In this document: positions 24,316-32,871 of the stretch, in pieces
How the letters are laid out: each line of letters opens with the position of its first letter
How positions within the stretch are numbered: position 1 is the first letter of the stretch
NCBI RefSeq assembly: GCF_022846255.1
Contig: NZ_AP025682.1
Direction: 5' to 3' (one strand)
Length of the DNA stretch: 64,000 nucleotides
Source: Escherichia coli
Lineage (GTDB): Bacteria; Pseudomonadota; Gammaproteobacteria; Enterobacterales; Enterobacteriaceae
The notes under the pieces: model-generated
The model's input: only the letters and a program-made list of their open reading frames with translations
The model's database searches: none
Told to the model about the DNA's origin: nothing
Program-made: the position numbers and the translations under genes

Positions 24316-25161
24316 TTATTTTCCCGCCTCCGGGTGCGTATCAAACGCCGCCATCACCAGCGCTAACTCATCCACAGTAAAGCCATGTTTCGCATCATCT
24401 ACGCCCAGACCAAACTGTTCCTGCATCACGGCATATAACGACGCCACATCTGGTAGATTTCGCTGCTCAACTGCGTGCCCATTTTCATAATGGGTAAAAT
24501 GAAAATTGGTCAGCGTTAGCTTGCCACCGTCCGGCAAATGGCGACACATCAGCAAATGATGGCGAAAATGCGACTGCGGCCAGTGCGCCGACCAGAAATT
24601 GCCCATCACATAATCGCTTTGTTGCTGCTCGCAGAGATCAAAACGGTACATCGACTGCCAGTGCTGATGATGATTAAACTGCAACACCCAATCATCACCC
24701 TCCTGCAACAACCGATACTCTCCGTGTGGCGTGGTTTGCATGATATCCGGCATTAAACGAATCGGCGCGGTTAGCGTCTGCCCACCGAAACCGACATCAG
24801 CAATCCATTTTTCCCCTTCCAGTTCCACCAACAGCAAACGATGGGTGCGCGGCGGTAATGCTGGCGGATTTGATAACACTACGCGCCCTAACAAGCTGCG
24901 AACGTTAAACCCCAGCTCGCGTAACACCCGCTCAAACACGCCATTCTGCTCAAAACAGTAACCACCACGACGGGCTATCACCAGTTTCTCTTCCAGCGAT
25001 TGATCATCAAGCTGTATTTCCCTCGGCAGCAAAACGTCGAGATTTTCAAACGGAATGGTGCAATTGTGTTTCAGGTGCAATGCACGCAGCGTATCAATAT
25101 TGGCCGCAGCAGCTCCCAACCAGTTAATACGGGCAAAATAATGATTCAGAATGGGCGTCAT
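24316..25161 (-). CDS. nhoA: arylamine N-acetyltransferase / N-hydroxyarylamine O-acetyltransferase
   Basis: 281 aa, NAT family. Confidence 0.95.
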   Translation of the reverse strand: MTPILNHYFARINWLGAAAANIDTLRALHLKHNCTIPFENLDVLLPREIQLDDQSLEEKLVIARRGGYCFEQNGVFERVLRELGFNVRSLLGRVVLSNPPALPPRTHRLLLVELEGEKWIADVGFGGQTLTAPIRLMPDIMQTTPHGEYRLLQEGDDWVLQFNHHQHWQSMYRFDLCEQQQSDYVMGNFWSAHWPQSHFRHHLLMCRHLPDGGKLTLTNFHFTHYENGHAVEQRNLPDVASLYAVMQEQFGLGVDDAKHGFTVDELALVMAAFDTHPEAGK

Positions 25162-25335
25162 CAGGCGTTTCCCTTAGTGGTTTTCTCAACTTATAACCTG
25201 GAATAGACGCCGCACTGGCTATTTTGTGCGATCGCGGACATGCATCACGTTCGCAAATCGCCAATCCCGTTAATTTCGTTACTTATTGCGTTACGAGCTA
25301 CGCTTTTAAAACACCCTTCATAGCGAGGCGATATC

Positions 25336-25905
25336 GTGAGCCGATTCATCCCTGTCGAATTACACCATGCCAGCCGTCTGTTAAATCATGGCCCAACTGT
25401 CTTGATCACCAGTTTCGATGAGCAATCCCAGCGGCGTAACATTATGGCAGCAGCCTGGTCAATGCCGGTGGAGTTTGAACCGCCACGCGTGGCGATTGTG
25501 GTAGATAAATCGACATGGACCAGGGAGTTGATTGAACGTAACGGTAAGTTTGGCATCGTTATCCCGGGCGTTGCGGCGACTAACTGGACGTGGGCGGTGG
25601 GAAGTGTGTCGGGGCGTGATGAAGATAAGTTTAATTGCTATGGTATTCCGGTTGTGAAAGGTCCGGTGCTTGGTTTGCCGCTGGTCGAGGAAAAATGTCT
25701 GGCGTGGATGGAGTGTCGCCTGCTACCTGCAACTTCCGCGCAAGAAAAATACGATACGCTATTTGGCGAAGTGGTATCTGCAGCGGCAGACGCACGAGTA
25801 TTTGTCGAAGGCCGCTGGCAGTTTGATGATGACAAACTCAATACGTTGCATCATTTAGGTGCTGGCACGTTTGTTACCAGCGGCAAGCGTGTTACGGCAG
25901 GTTAA
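25336..25905 (+). CDS. yddH: flavin reductase-like domain protein
   Basis: 189 aa matching remembered YddH. Confidence 0.85.
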   Translation: MSRFIPVELHHASRLLNHGPTVLITSFDEQSQRRNIMAAAWSMPVEFEPPRVAIVVDKSTWTRELIERNGKFGIVIPGVAATNWTWAVGSVSGRDEDKFNCYGIPVVKGPVLGLPLVEEKCLAWMECRLLPATSAQEKYDTLFGEVVSAAADARVFVEGRWQFDDDKLNTLHHLGAGTFVTSGKRVTAG

Positions 25906-25908
25906 GCA

Positions 25909-26136
25909 TTACATGCTGTAACCGGGTTTCTTTATCAAAGCCTCCATTTGGGGCTCGACTTCGGCATCCCAGATAGCTTGCCAAGATTCTGGTTGAATCT
26001 GCTGTAGAGAAATGCTTATCGAGCTATCTTTACTGTTCAGATGGCGAATAATAACGTCGGTAATATCTGCAGCAAGTGCTGCTTTTTGTTGTTCGTCCAG
26101 TTCACGCGGAAAACATTTAATGTCTATGTGCGGCAT
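25909..26136 (-). CDS. pptA: tautomerase (4-oxalocrotonate tautomerase family)
   Basis: 75-aa product [16 protein letters not shown]... with the N-terminal Pro typical of tautomerases; start placed by codon arithmetic from the 88-aa track ORF. Confidence 0.85.
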
Positions 26137-26441
26137 GATTGTGCTCCTTTTGAAAGATGTCAGTAAAATTAACACACGTTGTGAATGTCGTGTGTCCGGT
26201 AATGCGTTTTTACGGCAATAATGCCTACTTGAAATTGTACATATTTGTACTACACACTTTTAAATAAAGCGCCAATGAAAACGTTAACTTGCAGAATATA
26301 TTCTTCGCCAACATGCCATTAAGAAAACATCAAGTTCCCGGCTTGCCAATTTGTTAACGCCCATTATAGTTATTCTTGCCCTCACTAAAAATTTTCATCC
26401 GTAATTACCCCCAATAAAAATCCATTCTGGAGACGCTTAAG

Positions 26442-28418
26442 ATGCAGCTTAATCATATCGTTAAAAGTCTGCTAATAACGGGATTATTCACCACCAGTTC
26501 TTTACCTCTCCTCGCGGCGGAAGCTCCTAAAGACGCCACCGCAGCCACGCAACAAGCAAACAATTTACTCTACAACCAGTTGCCGTTTGCCGATAACACT
26601 GACTTTACTGATGCCCATAAAGGTTTTATTGCCCCTATCCCTCAAGACGTGATTAAGGGCGAACAAGGGAATGTTATCTGGGATCCACAACATTACGCTT
26701 TTATCAAAGAAGGCGATAAAGCCCCTGATACGGTGAATCCGAGTTTATGGCGTCAGGCGCAACTGATAAATATCAGCGGGTTATTCGAAGTAACTGAAGG
26801 TGTCTATCAGATTCGCAATCTCGATCTATCAAATATGACCATCATTGAAGGCAAAGAGGGTATTACCGTCGTTGATCCCCTTGTTTCAGCAGAAACAGCC
26901 AAAGTGGGTATGGATCTCTATTACAAAAATCGCGGCAAAAAACCGGTAGTGGCGGTTATCTATACACACAGTCATGTCGATCACTACGGTGGTGTTCGTG
27001 GCGTAATTGATGAAGCTGACGTTAAATCAGGCAAAGTTAAAATCTATGCGCCAGCCGGATTTTTGGAGGAAGCCGTTTCCGAAAACATCATGGCTGGCAA
27101 TGTTATGAGCCGACGAGCCAGTTATATGTATGGCAACTTATTGAAACCTGATGTTAAAGGCCAGGTGGGGGCTGGACTGGGAACGACTACTTCAGCAGGA
27201 ACAGTCACGTTGATTGCTCCTACTAACTACATCACCAAAACCGGACAAATAGAAACTATTGACGGGTTGACTTATGATTTCCTGATGGCGCCAGGTTCTG
27301 AAGCGCCTTCTGAAATGCTGTGGTTTATTGAAGAAAAGAAACTGATCGAAACCGCTGAAGATGTCACGCACACCCTTCATAACACCTATTCGCTGCGTGG
27401 GGCTAAAATTCGCCAACCGCTGCCGTGGTCAAAATATATTAATGAAGCTCTCAATTTGTGGGGTGATAAAGCCGAGATTATTCTCGCTCAACATCACTGG
27501 CCAACCTGGGGCAACGATAACGTGGTCAAACTGCTTAAAAGCCAGCGTGATTTGTATCGTTACATCAATGATCAAACTCTGCGCATGGCTAATCAAGGGA
27601 TGACCCGTGATGAAATTGCCGCAAACTTTAAACTGCCCTCTTCACTGGCTAACACCTGGGCGAATCGCGGCTATTACGGTTCGGTAAGTCATGACGTGAA
27701 AGCAACTTACGTGCTTTATCTCGGCTGGTTTGATGGTAACCCCGCGACGCTTGATGAACTGCCGCCAGAAGAAGGCGCAAAAAAATTCGTCGAGTATATG
27801 GGCGGTGCTGATGCCATTTTACAGAAAGCCAAACAGGATTATGACCAGGGTAATTTCCGCTGGGTTGCCCAAGTTGTTAGTAAGGTGGTGTTTGCCGATC
27901 CAAACAACCAGGCAGCGAGAGATCTGGAAGCTGATGCGCTTGAGCAGTTAGGCTATCAGGCTGAATCTGGGCCGTGGCGTAATTTCTATCTCACTGGTGC
28001 ACAGGAATTGCGTAATGGCGTACAAAAATTACCAACACCAAATACTGCCAGCCCAGACACCGTGCGTGCGATGACGCCGGAGATGTTCTTTGATTATCTT
28101 GCCGTCCATATTAATGGTGAGAAAGCGGCAGATGCCAAAACCGTGTTGAATTTCGATTTTGGTGAAGATGGCGGCACCTATAAAGTGGAGCTTGAAAATG
28201 GTGTTCTCAATCATACCGCTGGTGTAGAGGCTTCGGATGCTGATGCCACTATCACTCTGTCTCGTGATGTATTGAACAAAATTGTACTGAAAGAAGAGAC
28301 GCTGAAAGAAGCCACGGCCAAAGGAGATGTCAAAATTACTGGCAATGCGGAAAAACTCAACGAGCTGTTAGGTTATATGGATAATTTTGAATTTTGGTTC
28401 AATATAGTGACACCATAA
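26442..28418 (+). CDS. secreted alkyl/aryl-sulfatase-like metallo-beta-lactamase-fold hydrolase
   Basis: 658 aa with N-terminal signal peptide (..SLPLLAAEAP) and metal-binding motif HSHVDHYGG; SdsA1/YjcS-like architecture; not at this position in K-12 as I recall. Confidence 0.75.
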   Translation: MQLNHIVKSLLITGLFTTSSLPLLAAEAPKDATAATQQANNLLYNQLPFADNTDFTDAHKGFIAPIPQDVIKGEQGNVIWDPQHYAFIKEGDKAPDTVNPSLWRQAQLINISGLFEVTEGVYQIRNLDLSNMTIIEGKEGITVVDPLVSAETAKVGMDLYYKNRGKKPVVAVIYTHSHVDHYGGVRGVIDEADVKSGKVKIYAPAGFLEEAVSENIMAGNVMSRRASYMYGNLLKPDVKGQVGAGLGTTTSAGTVTLIAPTNYITKTGQIETIDGLTYDFLMAPGSEAPSEMLWFIEEKKLIETAEDVTHTLHNTYSLRGAKIRQPLPWSKYINEALNLWGDKAEIILAQHHWPTWGNDNVVKLLKSQRDLYRYINDQTLRMANQGMTRDEIAANFKLPSSLANTWANRGYYGSVSHDVKATYVLYLGWFDGNPATLDELPPEEGAKKFVEYMGGADAILQKAKQDYDQGNFRWVAQVVSKVVFADPNNQAARDLEADALEQLGYQAESGPWRNFYLTGAQELRNGVQKLPTPNTASPDTVRAMTPEMFFDYLAVHINGEKAADAKTVLNFDFGEDGGTYKVELENGVLNHTAGVEASDADATITLSRDVLNKIVLKEETLKEATAKGDVKITGNAEKLNELLGYMDNFEFWFNIVTP

Positions 28419-28432
28419 ATTTACTGCATACC

Positions 28433-28455
28433 GGGCAGGTATCCTGCCCTTTTTT
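28433..28455 (+). terminator. Rho-independent terminator after the sulfatase gene
   Basis: gggcagg-tat-cctgccc hairpin followed by a T6 run. Confidence 0.6.
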
Positions 28456-28464
28456 GGTTAAAAA

Positions 28465-29562
28465 ATGGCTGAACGAAGAAAAACGCATCACTCATGGAAA
28501 ACCCGCCGCGATATGGTTATTCGCGGCATGACGATTAGTTTGCCATGGTTTGCTTTTATCAATGTCAGTTTTGCATTGATAATTTTGCTGCGCCGTGTTC
28601 TGTTTAATGACCTTACTCCACCCTGGTTAAATGAAAAAAGCCTTATACATTCTATTGATATATCTGCAACGGGTATTCTGCTGATTTGCAGTGGTTTACT
28701 ACTCATCCCTCGGCAAAAAACATTACCTATCCAGGTGCTATTAGTTGCCCTGAGCCTGCTATGGTCATGGTGTAGTTATCACTTTATTGCGTACTGGACG
28801 CTGCAGTTTGCTTATCCACTATGTGTATTATTAATGCTTAGTGGCGTTGTCGCACTTTATTTCCATACCCCATCATTGCTCGCATTTGTCATTCCCTTAT
28901 GGTTCACCACTCCAATAGCGAGTCTTATGCTTAATCAACAGATCAATATTCATTTTGCTGTTGTATGGTGTATTTTTTCACTGGCGCTATATGGTGGGCG
29001 ACTCATTTTGTTACGTTGGTTTGAAGAAGCATGGGTACAAAACAGTTATAACAACCAGTTAATTAATCGCCTTGATGCATTAGCACATCGCGATCCTTTA
29101 ACTGGGATAGCAAACCGACGTGCAATGAACAGTATCTTACACGACGCGATGGATAACGGCGGGTCATTTGCTCTTATTATGCTGGATGTCGATTTTTTTA
29201 AACGTTACAACGACACTTACGGGCATCCTGCTGGGGATCGTTGTCTAATACAAGTTGCCGACGCTCTACAGCGTTCAACTCGCCAGTCGGAGGATGTTGT
29301 TGTCCGTTATGGTGGCGAAGAGTTTGCCATCATACTTTTTAATGCAACATTGCCGGAAGCAGAGACGGTAGCAGCCAGAGTGAAGCAAGAACTTAAACTG
29401 GCAGCTATCCCACATCAGGCATCTGCTGTTAATGCATTCGTTACGGTTAGTCAGGGGATTACCTGTTCTGCTCCCGCAAAAACGGCTGAACAAATTATTT
29501 CAGATGCCGACGCTGCGTTATACCGGGCGAAAGAAAGTGGGCGAAATCGATGGGCTTTATAA
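28465..29562 (+). CDS. membrane-anchored diguanylate cyclase (GGDEF domain)
   Basis: 365 aa: about 190-aa N-terminal region with several predicted TM helices, then GGDEF domain with active-site RYGGEEF; precise start codon uncertain (several in-frame Met). Confidence 0.8.
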   Translation: MAERRKTHHSWKTRRDMVIRGMTISLPWFAFINVSFALIILLRRVLFNDLTPPWLNEKSLIHSIDISATGILLICSGLLLIPRQKTLPIQVLLVALSLLWSWCSYHFIAYWTLQFAYPLCVLLMLSGVVALYFHTPSLLAFVIPLWFTTPIASLMLNQQINIHFAVVWCIFSLALYGGRLILLRWFEEAWVQNSYNNQLINRLDALAHRDPLTGIANRRAMNSILHDAMDNGGSFALIMLDVDFFKRYNDTYGHPAGDRCLIQVADALQRSTRQSEDVVVRYGGEEFAIILFNATLPEAETVAARVKQELKLAAIPHQASAVNAFVTVSQGITCSAPAKTAEQIISDADAALYRAKESGRNRWAL

Positions 29563-29589
29563 GCATTAGGGGACTGGACAGATTACGTC

Positions 29590-30328
29590 TCTCCTCGCTT
29601 AACAAGGGCTGACGGAGGGTAATAATTGTCTATAGCTATCTTCTTAGCGATGTCTTTCTGGTATCACATTGGATCGGTGCAATTATTTTTCCTTTAATAC
29701 CCATTATGTTAAGAAATTCAGAACCAGCTGTAATCTCATTGTTTTTTTCATTCGTCTTGATCTTCCAAGGAATCTGACTGTGCATTATTGAGAACACACT
29801 AATAACGTGAATCGCTCCCTTGCGACGACTCTTGTCATAAGAGTACCGGAGCGTTTTTCCATCAATTGCAATGACGTCTTTATCATCTGAAGAATGGCAG
29901 TCAAGCATCCAGTTAATAAAGCACTCATGAAATTTTTCAGGACTGATACAGGATACAACTCTGGCAATGGTATCGTGAACAGGAATACCATTATCAAAAT
30001 CACCATATTGCTTCAAAAAATCGAGATGTGTTTCCCCAAAATCCTCTATATCTTCCCAGCCTTCTGCACCCGAAATAACGACACAAATAGTCAACAGTAG
30101 AATATCCGATAATTTATGCTCCACTTTCCAGGCTTGTCTGTAATCGGGGATAATAGAAATATGTTCCATCAATTTTTTAAGTTCCATTTTGTTCTCCTTA
30201 ATTATGTAAAGAGTATTTGATCATGTATAAGCAATAAAAAACAGCTTTAGGTAATGAGGAATATCTCAATTTTTAAACATAAAATGCGAATTATTTAGTA
30301 CAAAAAAGCAGCGTTACGTGATCTTTCC
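29590..30328 (-). mobile_element. truncated, diverged ISAs1-family (H-repeat) element copy
   Basis: 183-aa ORF (29636..30187) is similar but not identical to the N-terminal part of the H-repeat transposase at 31727..32554, then diverges; its 5' flank (about 30190..30328) repeats 32560..32695. Confidence 0.6.
29636..30187 (-). pseudogene. ISAs1-family transposase, truncated copy
   Basis: N-terminal about 150 aa align with the second copy, C-terminal tail diverges and terminates early. Confidence 0.65.
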
Positions 30329-30348
30329 ATGGAAAAGAGAGTAATACA

Positions 30349-30364
30349 CTGATTTTTAACGCAG
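30349..30364 (+). promoter_or_regulatory. candidate LexA (SOS) box upstream of the symE-like gene
   Basis: CTG-N10-CAG (ctgatttttaacgcag) with AT-rich spacer about 65 bp upstream of the ATG; deviates from CTGT/ACAG at two conserved positions; K-12 symE is SOS-regulated. Confidence 0.25.
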
Positions 30365-30427
30365 ATTGCCAGTGCTACCAACACTGACAATCTGCTCACC
30401 ACAAGCAACTAACAGAGGTAGTTAATC

Positions 30428-30747
30428 ATGGCTGAACACGATATTACGCCAGAAGTCGCCATTTCCAAAACACAGCGCCGCTATAAAGTCGGCTATGTCA
30501 GAGCCCGCCACATAAACAGCAAACCACGTACTACTCACGACACCCCAGCCTGAACCTTAAGGGCGACTGGCTGAAAGAGGCCGGATTTGATACCGGACGG
30601 GGTGTCACGGTGAAGATTTCGGAGGGGTGCCTGACCATCATCGCTGACAGTGACGAGGTGCAGGAACTGCGGGAGGAACTTTATCAGGTTAAACAGGTGG
30701 TTAAGGGGATGCGGAACGGGATGTTTAGTGTGCTGAACGAGAATTAA
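30428..30747 (+). pseudogene. symE-like type I toxin gene (AbrB-fold), apparently frameshifted
   Basis: 41 codons from ATG 30428 (MAEHDITPEVAISKTQRRYKVGYVRARHINSKP...) end at TGA about 30551; the SymE core LNLKGDWLKEAGFDTGRGVTVKISEGCLTII... continues in the -1 frame to TAA about 30745; restoring one C near 30550 would fuse them. Confidence 0.6.
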
Positions 30748-30797
30748 ATAATAAAAAAGCCGGGGAGATTTAAAATCTTCCCGGCTTTCTTTATCAT

Positions 30798-31100
30798 CTA
30801 AAAAGGTAATAATCCTCTAATAGGAGAAAATTTTGTAATATCAATACCTTGTAATTTAAAGTAATTAAAAGCATCTTCTATATTGGAAAACGCACTAATT
30901 TCTTCAGTTGCATAATCTTCGAACACTTCCATTTTATTTTCTGGTATTTTGAAAAAATAGGTATTGTATTTTTCATCCTGTTTTTTAATGGCATATTGGA
31001 AAAAATAACTTTCACCATTTATTTCCTTTATCTCATCAAAACCTCTAACCTTACCATTCTCTATAGCAACAATTAATTTTTCAATAGACAAATCAACCAT
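30798..31100 (-). CDS. putative immunity protein for the upstream toxin-like ORF
   Basis: 100-aa acidic, low-GC ORF; its ATG overlaps the stop of the upstream ORF (ATGgtTGA), the usual toxin-immunity arrangement; no sequence family recognised. Confidence 0.45.
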   Translation of the reverse strand: MVDLSIEKLIVAIENGKVRGFDEIKEINGESYFFQYAIKKQDEKYNTYFFKIPENKMEVFEDYATEEISAFSNIEDAFNYFKLQGIDITKFSPIRGLLPF

Positions 31101-31440
31101 CTATATCTATCCTCACCATTGTCCCATCAGAACGTTTAATATTTATATGAGGCAAAGAACCATGCCCTGTGCCTTTATGGTCATCATGACCATATACACG
31201 ACCAGTATTAGAATCAATAGGGTAATCTTTCCTATAACGGACAGTACCATCTCTTTTCTTAAATTGTTCCATCTTATGTTTTTTTCTAATACCGGCGGCA
31301 TCCTGCGAACTGATCCCTCTTACTTTTTGAGCATCAGGAAAGGCCTCCATCAATAAATCATGGGCTTCCTGTTTTGATTTAACTGTGACAACGGTTCCTT
31401 GAGGCCCCAGGGCAAGATTACGAAAGCCCGCTCCCCGCAA
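31093..31440 (-). CDS. putative orphan polymorphic-toxin C-terminal domain (3' fragment of an IS-disrupted gene)
   Basis: Track ORF begins inside the ISAs1 end with a TTG; first ATG gives [10 protein letters not shown]... (about 31350); C-terminal His-rich motif [21 protein letters not shown] is reminiscent of HNH/beta-beta-alpha-Me nuclease toxins; low GC. Confidence 0.4.
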
Positions 31441-32695
31441 GGACTGACGCCAGATAGTTTCTGTCCATGGCTGCTTTTCGCATCTTACGTCTTAACCCTG
31501 CCTTGAATACCTTATCATTCGTCAAAATATTAATAGCGATGTGCCGTATCCCTGAAAATAATTCTGCTGCATTTCCTCTTCTTATTTTGCAGTCGTCTTC
31601 ATTCATTACCACGTCCAGACGCCAGTGCAGCTTATTCTCCACGTGCCAGTGGTTTCGGATTGCTGTGGCGAACTTCTCTGCGGTTAAATCAGCAGAACTG
31701 ATATAATATCTGACCGTCATTTCTGGCTATTTCTTTTGTTCTGCTATTATGGACCGAAAGGAGACTGCCACGCATAATTTCTTCAGTCCTTTCCATTCAA
31801 ACGTGAAATCAATAAGTTCATCAGGGACATCGCAAACAATATGAAGACGGATTTCTTCTCTGCCGTGACTTTTTTCACTAATTGCGTAACTGTCATGCTC
31901 TGGATTATTCAATTCTTTCAGCGGAAATTTTTCCTCGAAGGCTTTATTTAGCCGCCCCTGGTTTCCTTTTACAGCGAATAAATAATCACCTCCCTGTTTT
32001 TGTATCTTCTCTGCAATATCTTTCTGGCAACCCATCGCATCAGTTGTGATGATTTTTCCTTTAATATCCAGCATGTTAAGAAGTTCAGGGATAGCTGTAA
32101 TTTCATTGGATTTCTCATCCGTCCTGATCTGTCCGATGACCAGACTGTGCATTGTTGAGAACGCACTAATGACATGAATCGCTCCCCTGCGGCGACTCTT
32201 GTCATAAGAATGTCGGAGCGTTTTTCCATCAATTGCAATAACGTCTTTATCATCTGAAGAATGGCAGTCACGCATCCAGTTAATAAAGCACTCGTGAAAT
32301 TTTGCAGGACTGATACAGGATACAACTCTGGCAATGGTATCGTGAACAGGAATACCATTTTCAAAATCACCATATTGCTTCAAAAAATCGAGATGTGTTT
32401 CCCCAAAACCCTCTATATCTTCCCAGCCTTCTGCACCAGAAATAACGGCACAAATAGTCAACAGTAGAATATCCGATAATTTATGTTCCACTTTCCAGGC
32501 TTGTCTGTAATCGGGGATAATAGAAATATGTTCCATCAATTTTTTAAGTACCATTTTGTTCTCCTTAATTATGTAAGGAGTATTTGATCATGTATAAGCA
32601 ATAAAAAACAGCTTCAGGTAATAAGGAATATCTCAATTTTTAAACATAAAATGCGAATTATTTAGTACAAAAAAGCAGCGTTACGTGATCTTTCC
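31400..32695 (-). mobile_element. ISAs1-family (H-repeat) insertion sequence
   Basis: Transposase reading frame of about 379 codons (31418..32554) with the [26 protein letters not shown]-terminal signature; upstream boundary set where the two copies' flanks diverge (after ...gtgatctttcc). Confidence 0.7.
31418..32554 (-). pseudogene. ISAs1-family transposase, split by a frameshift near 31720-31727
   Basis: 275-aa N-terminal ORF (31727..32554) and 100-aa C-terminal ORF (31418..31720) are contiguous in different frames. Confidence 0.7.
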
Positions 32696-32871
32696 CTGGT
32701 TATCGCTGTTCTTTCCCCTTGACCAGGCAAATATTTTTCATTATGGATCCATACCTTGCTATAATCAATTGTATTCTCAAAAATCGATCTGGCCAATGTT
32801 AATTCACCAGATGTCATTCTCCTTAATGACATATCCTTTCCCCTGGAAATAATATCTTTCAGATAAAACAC
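32662..32871 (-). pseudogene. 5' fragment of a gene truncated by the ISAs1 insertion; N-terminus resembles DUF4157-type domains
   Basis: 69-aa ORF whose last about 12 codons are encoded by IS-end sequence; motif LARSIFENTIDYSKVWIH resembles the E..fG.DfS.VRVH N-terminal signature of DUF4157 (a recollection, not verified). Confidence 0.35.

Follow-up and report, generated by a model that had tools for sequence, protein, structure and literature searches.

The window analyzed here, a 64,000-nucleotide (nt) stretch of Escherichia coli DNA (contig NZ_AP025682.1; all positions refer to it unless a locus label such as L002 or L010 is given), encodes a membrane-bound diguanylate cyclase (DGC) at 28465-29562 on the + strand. 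The evidence favors, with a probability of about 0.8, an inner-membrane enzyme of the MASE5-GGDEF family that forms the downstream member of a unit with a sulfatase gene, that is ancestral at its locus and retained, and that carries an RxxxD variant of the inhibitory site (I-site). The open reading frame (ORF), taken from the ORF list, begins with ATG, runs uninterrupted for 365 amino acids (aa) with its stop codon included in the span, and is real, intact, and correctly delimited. Its ATG lies 46 nt past the stop of a gene for a 658-aa alkyl/aryl-sulfatase (26442-28418), in agreement with the initial annotation of this DNA, which had placed the cyclase immediately downstream of a sulfatase gene; the peptide quoted in that annotation, RQSEDVVVRYGGEEF, corresponds to residues 273-287 of the protein.

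The RefSeq annotation labels the protein as a GGDEF domain-containing protein or diguanylate cyclase and starts it at 28513 (M17), giving a product of 349 aa with the accession WP_000236740.1. Both the 365-aa and the 349-aa forms are present as exact sequences in public collections, the shorter one on at least 1000 contigs. The 16-codon N-terminal extension is open in Escherichia, Citrobacter, Enterobacter, Salmonella, and Hafnia, with a Trp and basic residues (Trp/Arg) conserved in the alignment, and the first helix of an AlphaFold2 model begins at residue 14, before the RefSeq start. Because the extension is conserved across all aligned genera and the first helix starts within it, the longer ORF beginning at 28465 is favored, and the RefSeq-annotated start is probably too short.

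The initial annotation described a polytopic N-terminal membrane region followed by a GGDEF domain, and both parts were recovered: six transmembrane (TM) helices are predicted, and residues 207-362 (29083-29550, + strand) match the GGDEF catalytic domain over the entire model (Pfam PF00990, E 1.9e-48, model positions 1-161 of 161). The N-terminal region had been considered unassignable to a named sensor family; a domain search names it as MASE5, a membrane sensor domain spanning residues 25-206 (28537-29082, + strand), with a full-length model match (Pfam PF17178, E 7.5e-44, model positions 2-192 of 192). The cyclase scores 157.6 bits against TIGR00254, compared with a cut-off of 37.4, and 47 solved DGC chains match its GGDEF domain at E<=1e-10. 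The active-site (A-site) motif GGEEF, previously described as intact, is indeed complete at residues 283-287 (G283-F287; 29311-29325, + strand, read from the sequence), and it is invariant in an alignment of 20 homologues that are 37-93% identical to the E. coli cyclase. Residues D241, K246, N249, D258, R281, K356, and R360 are invariant across the same alignment. On the basis of the established residues of PleD rather than a tool alignment, these residues together with the GGEEF motif correspond to PleD D327, K332, N335, D344, R366, GGEEF, K442, and R446, which are the metal-, guanine-, and phosphate-binding residues of that enzyme. Judged by its sequence, the protein is a competent diguanylate cyclase with all of the usual catalytic residues present.

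All of the retrieved homologues carry precomputed PF17178 and PF00990 assignments, and the named members among the MASE5 cyclases all belong to the Enterobacterales (Escherichia, Citrobacter, Enterobacter, Lelliottia, Leclercia, Salmonella, Hafnia, and Pantoea). A search with the MASE5 domain alone against 1.84 billion representative proteins returned 44 clusters at E<=0.001, mostly fragments, and no link to another sensor family or output domain. The MASE5 family is narrow, and the cyclase belongs to a catalogued family (MASE5-GGDEF) and represents a known kind of gene.

Within E. coli, the protein is distinct from the cyclases of K-12, as had been suspected. None of the NCBIfam equivalogs for named DGCs (DgcN, DgcQ, DgcJ, AdrA/DgcC, SiaD, PleD, and others) reaches its cut-off, and the matches cover only the GGDEF domain (e.g., 119.8 for DgcN versus a cut-off of 325, and 92.3 for AdrA versus 402). 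The gene is absent from the corresponding K-12 locus, and a MASE5-GGDEF protein of Enterobacter has been tabulated without a counterpart in MG1655 (PMC7232144). This cyclase is one of the few non-K-12 cyclases of E. coli and is experimentally uncharacterised. In 2016, Povolotsky and Hengge reportedly described DgcX and DgcY as two further membrane cyclases found in the E. coli pangenome, and MASE5 is said to have been defined in the nomenclature paper of Hengge and colleagues from the same year. The cyclase has almost certainly received a name already, by elimination probably DgcY, which is offered here as a candidate; because DgcX, DgcT, and CdgI are MASE4 proteins, DgcY is left as the only possible E. 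coli founder of MASE5. The MASE4 assignments of these three proteins come from published work (PMC4287979; PMC10459773). In the protein collection, none of the sources labels this sequence DgcY, the full-text literature yielded only unrelated uses of it (Halomonas and Pseudomonas fluorescens names, cytometry tools), and the supplement of PMC5635171 mentions DgcX and not DgcY.

The AlphaFold2 model, built from the 20-homologue alignment (mean predicted local distance difference test score 84), contains six TM helices (residues 14-41, 58-80, 86-109, 116-131, 135-157, and 162-207) joined by very short loops, and the sixth (TM6) continues unbroken from the membrane into the GGDEF domain as a stalk. 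Hydropathy and the positive-inside distribution of Lys and Arg are consistent with a topology in which both termini are cytoplasmic (N-in, C-in). Among PDB entries, Foldseek ranks the cryo-EM structure of full-length Pseudomonas aeruginosa ImcA highest (8wcn; E 1.1e-12, TM-scores 0.56/0.54, 367 columns, 23% identity). ImcA is a 6TM-GGDEF homodimer that dimerizes through its TM domain, on which its cyclase activity also depends (PMC10904736). By analogy, the cyclase would act as a homodimer held together by its TM domain, as do other GGDEF enzymes and ImcA; a signal at the level of the membrane would shift the register of the stalk helices, and that register would decide whether the two GTP-loaded GGDEF domains meet to form cyclic di-GMP (c-di-GMP). 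Such a TM-dimerised enzyme gated through the TM6 stalk is the likely mechanism.

The cyclase departs from the canonical I-site, which is defined as RxxD with the Asp five residues upstream of GG(D/E)EF (PMC4287979). In the cyclase, positions -9 to -6 relative to GGEEF read QSED and the Arg falls at -10, so that the site reads R273-Q-S-E-D277 (29281-29295, + strand), RxxxD instead of RxxD. An ungapped HMMER alignment to WspR pairs WspR R242 with Q274 and WspR D245 with D277, leaving R273 one position upstream. The non-canonical spacing noticed by the initial annotation is thus upheld by the WspR alignment, which places Q274 at the Arg position and shows no intact RxxD in the cyclase.

The Arg at -10 and the Asp at -6 are invariant in all of the ~130 retrieved MASE5-GGDEF homologues, and the intervening positions vary (-9, Q/T/S/H/R/M/K; -8, S/P/T/E/R/H; -7, E/D/A/H/V/N/G/R). 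Among seven distant representatives from the MASE5 search (28-40% identity in MASE5), all five that retain the GGEEF region show VRxxxD..GGEEF; the other two are frameshift-corrupted or truncated and are missing the motif region. For comparison, a sample of 83 GGDEF domains from unrelated bacteria of distant phyla, collected by scanning contigs for a generic GGDEF motif and biased toward close GGDEF relatives, contains the canonical R(-9)/D(-6) arrangement in 66 of the 83 and the R(-10)/non-R(-9)/D(-6) arrangement in two. The RxxxD variant thus appears to be fixed across the whole MASE5 family, as opposed to reflecting degeneration in a particular strain, and a family-fixed I-site variant offers a clean natural experiment on the strictness of the RxxD spacing rule.

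In the AlphaFold2 model, R273 lies two residues after the helix formed by residues 255-271, and D277 immediately precedes the strand formed by residues 278-281; this placement is consistent with insertion of one residue into the I-site loop and not with loss of the site. R305, which is invariant in the 20-homologue alignment, is taken to be the counterpart of PleD R390, which is the third of the primary I-site residues. That RxxxD together with R305 forms a working I-site with a loop one residue longer, used for c-di-GMP feedback or partner interactions, is possible, at less than even odds. Several observations speak for it: R(-10) and D(-6) stay fixed in homologues with as little as 28% identity in MASE5 although positions -9 to -7 change freely, R305 is invariant, both anchors keep their placement relative to the flanking helix and strand, and the pattern is rare in the background sample. 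Against it stand the bias of that sample, the possibility that the conservation reflects a structural salt bridge or an interaction surface, and a literature search that turned up no experimental example of an RxxxD I-site (three matches were typos or PilZ-motif mutants). The further proposal of the initial annotation, that product feedback inhibition may be absent, holds only in its first part: RxxD is out of register, but the absence of inhibition does not follow, given that R273, D277, and R305 are invariant and that DGCs without RxxD are common. The motif is missing from 13 of the 21 DGCs of Pantoea sp. YR343 and from E. coli DgcN (PMC8294551), and a lack of feedback, if it did apply here, would be nothing out of the ordinary.

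The second feature of the cyclase is its association with the upstream sulfatase gene (26442-28418, + strand; 658 aa), which RefSeq names as an alkyl/aryl-sulfatase; the product is a detergent-degrading enzyme of the metallo-beta-lactamase type. The sulfatase has a signal-peptide-like sequence at its N-terminus, and its orthologues carry the Pfam domains Lactamase_B, Alkyl_sulf_dimr, and Alkyl_sulf_C. In a sample of 12 homologue neighborhoods (about 11 distinct contexts), four separate chromosomal loci pair the cyclase with an adjoining orthologous alkyl sulfatase: in tandem beside pptA in Escherichia, in a divergent arrangement between SMR/uspF and ttcA in Salmonella enterica subsp. indica (P0083 loci), in tandem between tynA and feaB in an Enterobacter-like genome, and in tandem between purEK and bhsA-lpxH in another member of the Enterobacterales. 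Because the pair recurs at four loci, usually with a hairpin between the genes, a functional two-gene module of sulfatase and cyclase is suggested. At the tynA-feaB locus, one Enterobacter-type genome has a ParE toxin-antitoxin pair (L096 4370-4892) upstream of the MASE5 cyclase, at precisely the place that the sulfatase takes in L092 (3056-5032). The two members of the pair differ greatly in conservation: the sulfatase proteins are 85-95% identical between genera, and the adjoining cyclases are ~50% identical (77% for the E. marmotae-type locus; window 26442-29562, L097 2985-6143, L092 3056-6122, L005 3736-7128). This identity gap represents a large asymmetry in rate or transfer.

A consensus scan located a terminator-like hairpin (GGGCAGG-TAT-CCTGCCC followed by T6; 28433-28455, + strand) between the sulfatase stop and the cyclase ATG, ending 9 nt before the latter, with a predicted folding energy of -13.5 kcal/mol (z -1.1). 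Such a stem-loop is the rule where the genes are in tandem, and analogous ones are present at the corresponding position in L097 (11-bp stem and T7) and in L092 (12-bp stem, z -4.6). A promoter belonging to the cyclase between the hairpin and the ATG was considered and rejected, since only 9 nt are available there. The promoter consensus scan gave no match in the last 1100 nt before the cyclase ATG, the nearest + strand match being inside the sulfatase gene at 27250-27278, and a TTGGTT-16-TAAATT sequence found by hand fell under the threshold of the scan. The best match is a sigma-70-like sequence upstream of the sulfatase gene (TTGCCA-16-TATAGT, 26343-26370, + strand, 10/12), a weak candidate for the promoter of the whole module, as the number of sites found did not exceed the shuffled expectation. 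Since there is no room for a promoter past the hairpin, expression of the cyclase by read-through from the sulfatase promoter is the arrangement that the layout points to, and in E. coli the gene would probably be transcribed mainly by attenuated read-through.

The coupling to a sulfatase provides a candidate signal (alkyl sulfates or long-chain alcohols) for MASE5, a sensor without a known ligand. In its most specific form, this idea would make the pair a surfactant-response module, in which MASE5, being nearly devoid of periplasmic loops, would sense alkyl sulfates in the membrane or long-chain alcohols released by the periplasmic sulfatase and would drive aggregation or biofilm formation through c-di-GMP, with the hairpin acting as an attenuator and RxxxD as a hitherto unrecognized I-site expanded by one residue. 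A parallel would be the SiaABCD system of P. aeruginosa, which reportedly mediates a c-di-GMP aggregation response induced by sodium dodecyl sulfate. As a complete account, this proposal is rather doubtful.

The distribution of the gene among strains bears out the description of it as strain-variable. The cyclase is present in 443 of 5426 complete E. coli genomes (~8%), with a full-length copy in 436 and at least 99% identity in 439; the remaining copies, in seven of the 443 genomes, are truncated. The two genes co-occur, the sulfatase being full-length in 439 complete genomes and the cyclase in 436. In K-12 MG1655, the H-repeat (ISAs1-family) gene ydcC abuts the upstream region of pptA, and neither the sulfatase nor the cyclase is found there. 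According to a blastn comparison with the K-12 locus, the segment absent from MG1655 spans 26226-31405, its flanks being contiguous in K-12 (L002 8964/8965), and besides the sulfatase and the cyclase it includes a truncated H-repeat copy along with two small ORFs.

Outside of E. coli, the identity of the cyclase to the E. coli protein declines in a graded fashion, from 93% in E. whittamii through 81% in unclassified Escherichia spp., 77% in E. marmotae, and 64% in Citrobacter koseri to ~50% in Enterobacter and Salmonella. The E. marmotae-type locus (L010) has the order nhoA-yddH-pptA-sulfatase-cyclase and follows the gene order of the window from nhoA to the cyclase, with 83% nucleotide identity, and the C. 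koseri-type loci (L008/L009; narZYWV-nhoA-yddH-cyclase-GST-ansP) represent the same chromosomal neighborhood as in E. coli. The ratio of nonsynonymous to synonymous substitution rates (dN/dS) between the E. coli and E. marmotae-type cyclases is 0.145 for the whole gene, with 0.17 in the MASE5 part and 0.12 in the GGDEF part, values that indicate purifying selection. About 88 complete genomes without the pair keep just the first 60-70 nt of the sulfatase gene. In E. coli MS1718 (L095 5001-5080), what remains of the sulfatase gene is its first 62 nt, separated by 18 nt from the end of an ISAs1 (ydcC) element, and stubs of this type are best read as the scar of a deletion adjacent to an insertion sequence. 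Because identity tracks phylogeny, the locus is syntenic, dN/dS is 0.145, and sulfatase stubs lie beside ISAs1, loss is favored over gain: the cyclase appears to be an ancestral Escherichia gene that was lost in most E. coli, including K-12, next to ISAs1/H-repeat elements. Presence of the gene would then mark lineages that escaped the ISAs1-associated deletion. E. coli lineages differ in how many and which c-di-GMP cyclases they possess, and the set of cyclases affects phenotypes such as biofilm, curli/cellulose, and motility.

Carriage on plasmids or phages was considered and rejected, as the sole full-length match in a plasmid collection is a 4.9-Mb chromosome filed as a plasmid. That PLSDB record (NZ_CP134663.1) contains the whole region at 99.8% identity and is evidently a mislabelled chromosome. 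As a separate observation, the DNA from nhoA to the cyclase (window 24542-29587) is 83% identical to L010, with a synonymous divergence (dS) of 0.89 for the cyclase, which seems to be above the genome-wide divergence between E. coli and E. marmotae; this points either to rapid evolution of the region or to a more distant relative as the source of the metagenomic contig.

The same data bear on the proposal of the initial annotation that the gene supplies an extra, possibly unregulated source of c-di-GMP, which did not hold up, since the gene is ancestral at its locus, possesses a sensor domain, and is preceded by a hairpin that leaves no room for a promoter of its own. In its strongest form, this alternative describes a recently acquired cyclase that lacks product feedback and shifts biofilm and motility behavior. 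In its favor stand an RxxD that is out of register, with Q274 at the Arg position, the scoring of a Pantoea MASE5-GGEEF enzyme as lacking RxxD (PMC8294551), and the absence of the gene from K-12 and from ~92% of complete genomes. It is nevertheless unlikely, as synteny and graded identity through Escherichia spp. and C. koseri indicate retention, deletion scars lie beside ISAs1, R273, D277, and R305 are invariant throughout the family, the sensor domain itself shows purifying selection, a hairpin and T-run directly precede the gene, and the absence of RxxD is commonplace and by itself no sign of missing regulation. The opposite alternative, that the cyclase is a decaying relic, unexpressed or without enzymatic relevance in those strains, a minority, that still carry it, gains from the loss of the gene in most E. 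coli, from the truncated copies in 7 of 443 genomes, and from the terminator-like hairpin directly upstream combined with the lack of a recognizable promoter of its own. Such decay is very improbable in view of the 436 of 443 copies that are full-length at 99% identity or more, the dN/dS of 0.145, and the invariance of all catalytic residues; conservation of the stop-hairpin-start layout in other genera suggests regulation over decay.

Downstream of the cyclase, the window contains two H-repeat elements. The first, a truncated copy of an ISAs1-family transposase gene (29636-30306, - strand), lies 74 nt downstream of the cyclase, is 91% identical to K-12 ydcC over 672 nt, and is annotated by RefSeq as frameshifted and incomplete. 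The second (31406-32715, - strand) is the equivalent of K-12 ydcC, to which it is 96.6% identical; it is split in the window into two ORFs on the - strand (31418-31720, 100 aa, and 31727-32554, 275 aa), whereas K-12 ydcC is intact, and it is probably a pseudogene. The window lacks counterparts of yncG, yncH, rhsE, ydcD, and yncI, which in K-12 occupy the interval from ansP to ydcC. Two overlapping small ORFs of 100 and 115 aa (30798-31440, - strand), situated between the H-repeat copies, gave no match in Pfam scans; judged by their position, they may be an orphan toxin/immunity-like pair left over from an Rhs/H-repeat rearrangement.

Several points weigh against the favored reading of the cyclase. 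In C. koseri, other Enterobacter, Hafnia, and Pantoea, the cyclase gene stands alone, with no sulfatase beside it. The fold of the E. coli hairpin is not statistically exceptional (z -1.1), and the structure is degraded in the E. marmotae-type locus (L010). With a hairpin directly ahead of the ATG, a weak Shine-Dalgarno sequence, and no space for a promoter, the gene may be expressed at a very low level. The likeness of the TM domain to ImcA is structural only, with sequence alignment beginning at residue 173. The literature search found no enzymatic, expression, or phenotype data for the E. coli cyclase, and the only experimental datum found for a MASE5 cyclase is the promoter activity of Pantoea DGC3134, which is induced in biofilm and on plant roots (PMC8294551). 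The results do not overturn current understanding, and what they add is modest: retention as opposed to acquisition, with loss linked to ISAs1, an RxxxD motif fixed throughout the family, and a recurrent pairing with a sulfatase across a hairpin.

Compared with WspR and PleD, reference cyclases regulated through the I-site, the protein shares the GGDEF fold, all of the catalytic residues, the Asp at -6, and the Arg taken to be equivalent to PleD R390; it differs in the displacement of the RxxD Arg by one residue and in having a membrane input domain instead of a receiver domain. ImcA resembles it more closely in overall architecture, with a six-TM domain, a GGEEF cyclase domain, and the same overall fold, and it is also the best sequence match for the GGDEF domain (E 8.4e-32). 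However, sequence comparison detects no relationship in TM1-5 (phmmer aligns 8wcn with cyclase residues 173-362 only), ImcA bears a canonical RPLD at -9 to -6, and ImcA is controlled by the partner IsmP and by iron, no such partner being evident for the cyclase. The DGC3134 protein of Pantoea sp. YR343 (PMI39_03134) has the same MASE5-GGEEF architecture and was also scored by its authors as lacking RxxD (PMC8294551), although the Pantoea homologues examined are ~51% identical to the E. coli cyclase and their loci have no sulfatase neighbor.

A further comparison is with DgcX, which resembles the cyclase described here in being a membrane GGDEF protein that varies among E. coli strains and has an intact A-site. 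DgcX, known from E. coli O104:H4 and the enteroaggregative strain 55989, has a sensor of ~270 aa with eight TM helices, a GGDEF domain at residues 269-441, and an intact RxxD (PMC4287979); its sensor was later classed as MASE4 (PMC10459773), and its gene adjoins lambdoid prophages at attB (PMC4287979; PMC10459773). The present cyclase, in contrast, is a MASE5 protein of 365 aa with six TM helices, a GGDEF domain at residues 207-362, and RxxxD, and it is located at the pptA locus with no prophage. Identity with DgcX was rejected on these grounds, as sensor domain, length, I-site, and locus all differ. DgcX is a horizontally acquired virulence add-on, whereas the MASE5 cyclase would represent an ancestral gene that some lineages of E. 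coli have retained.

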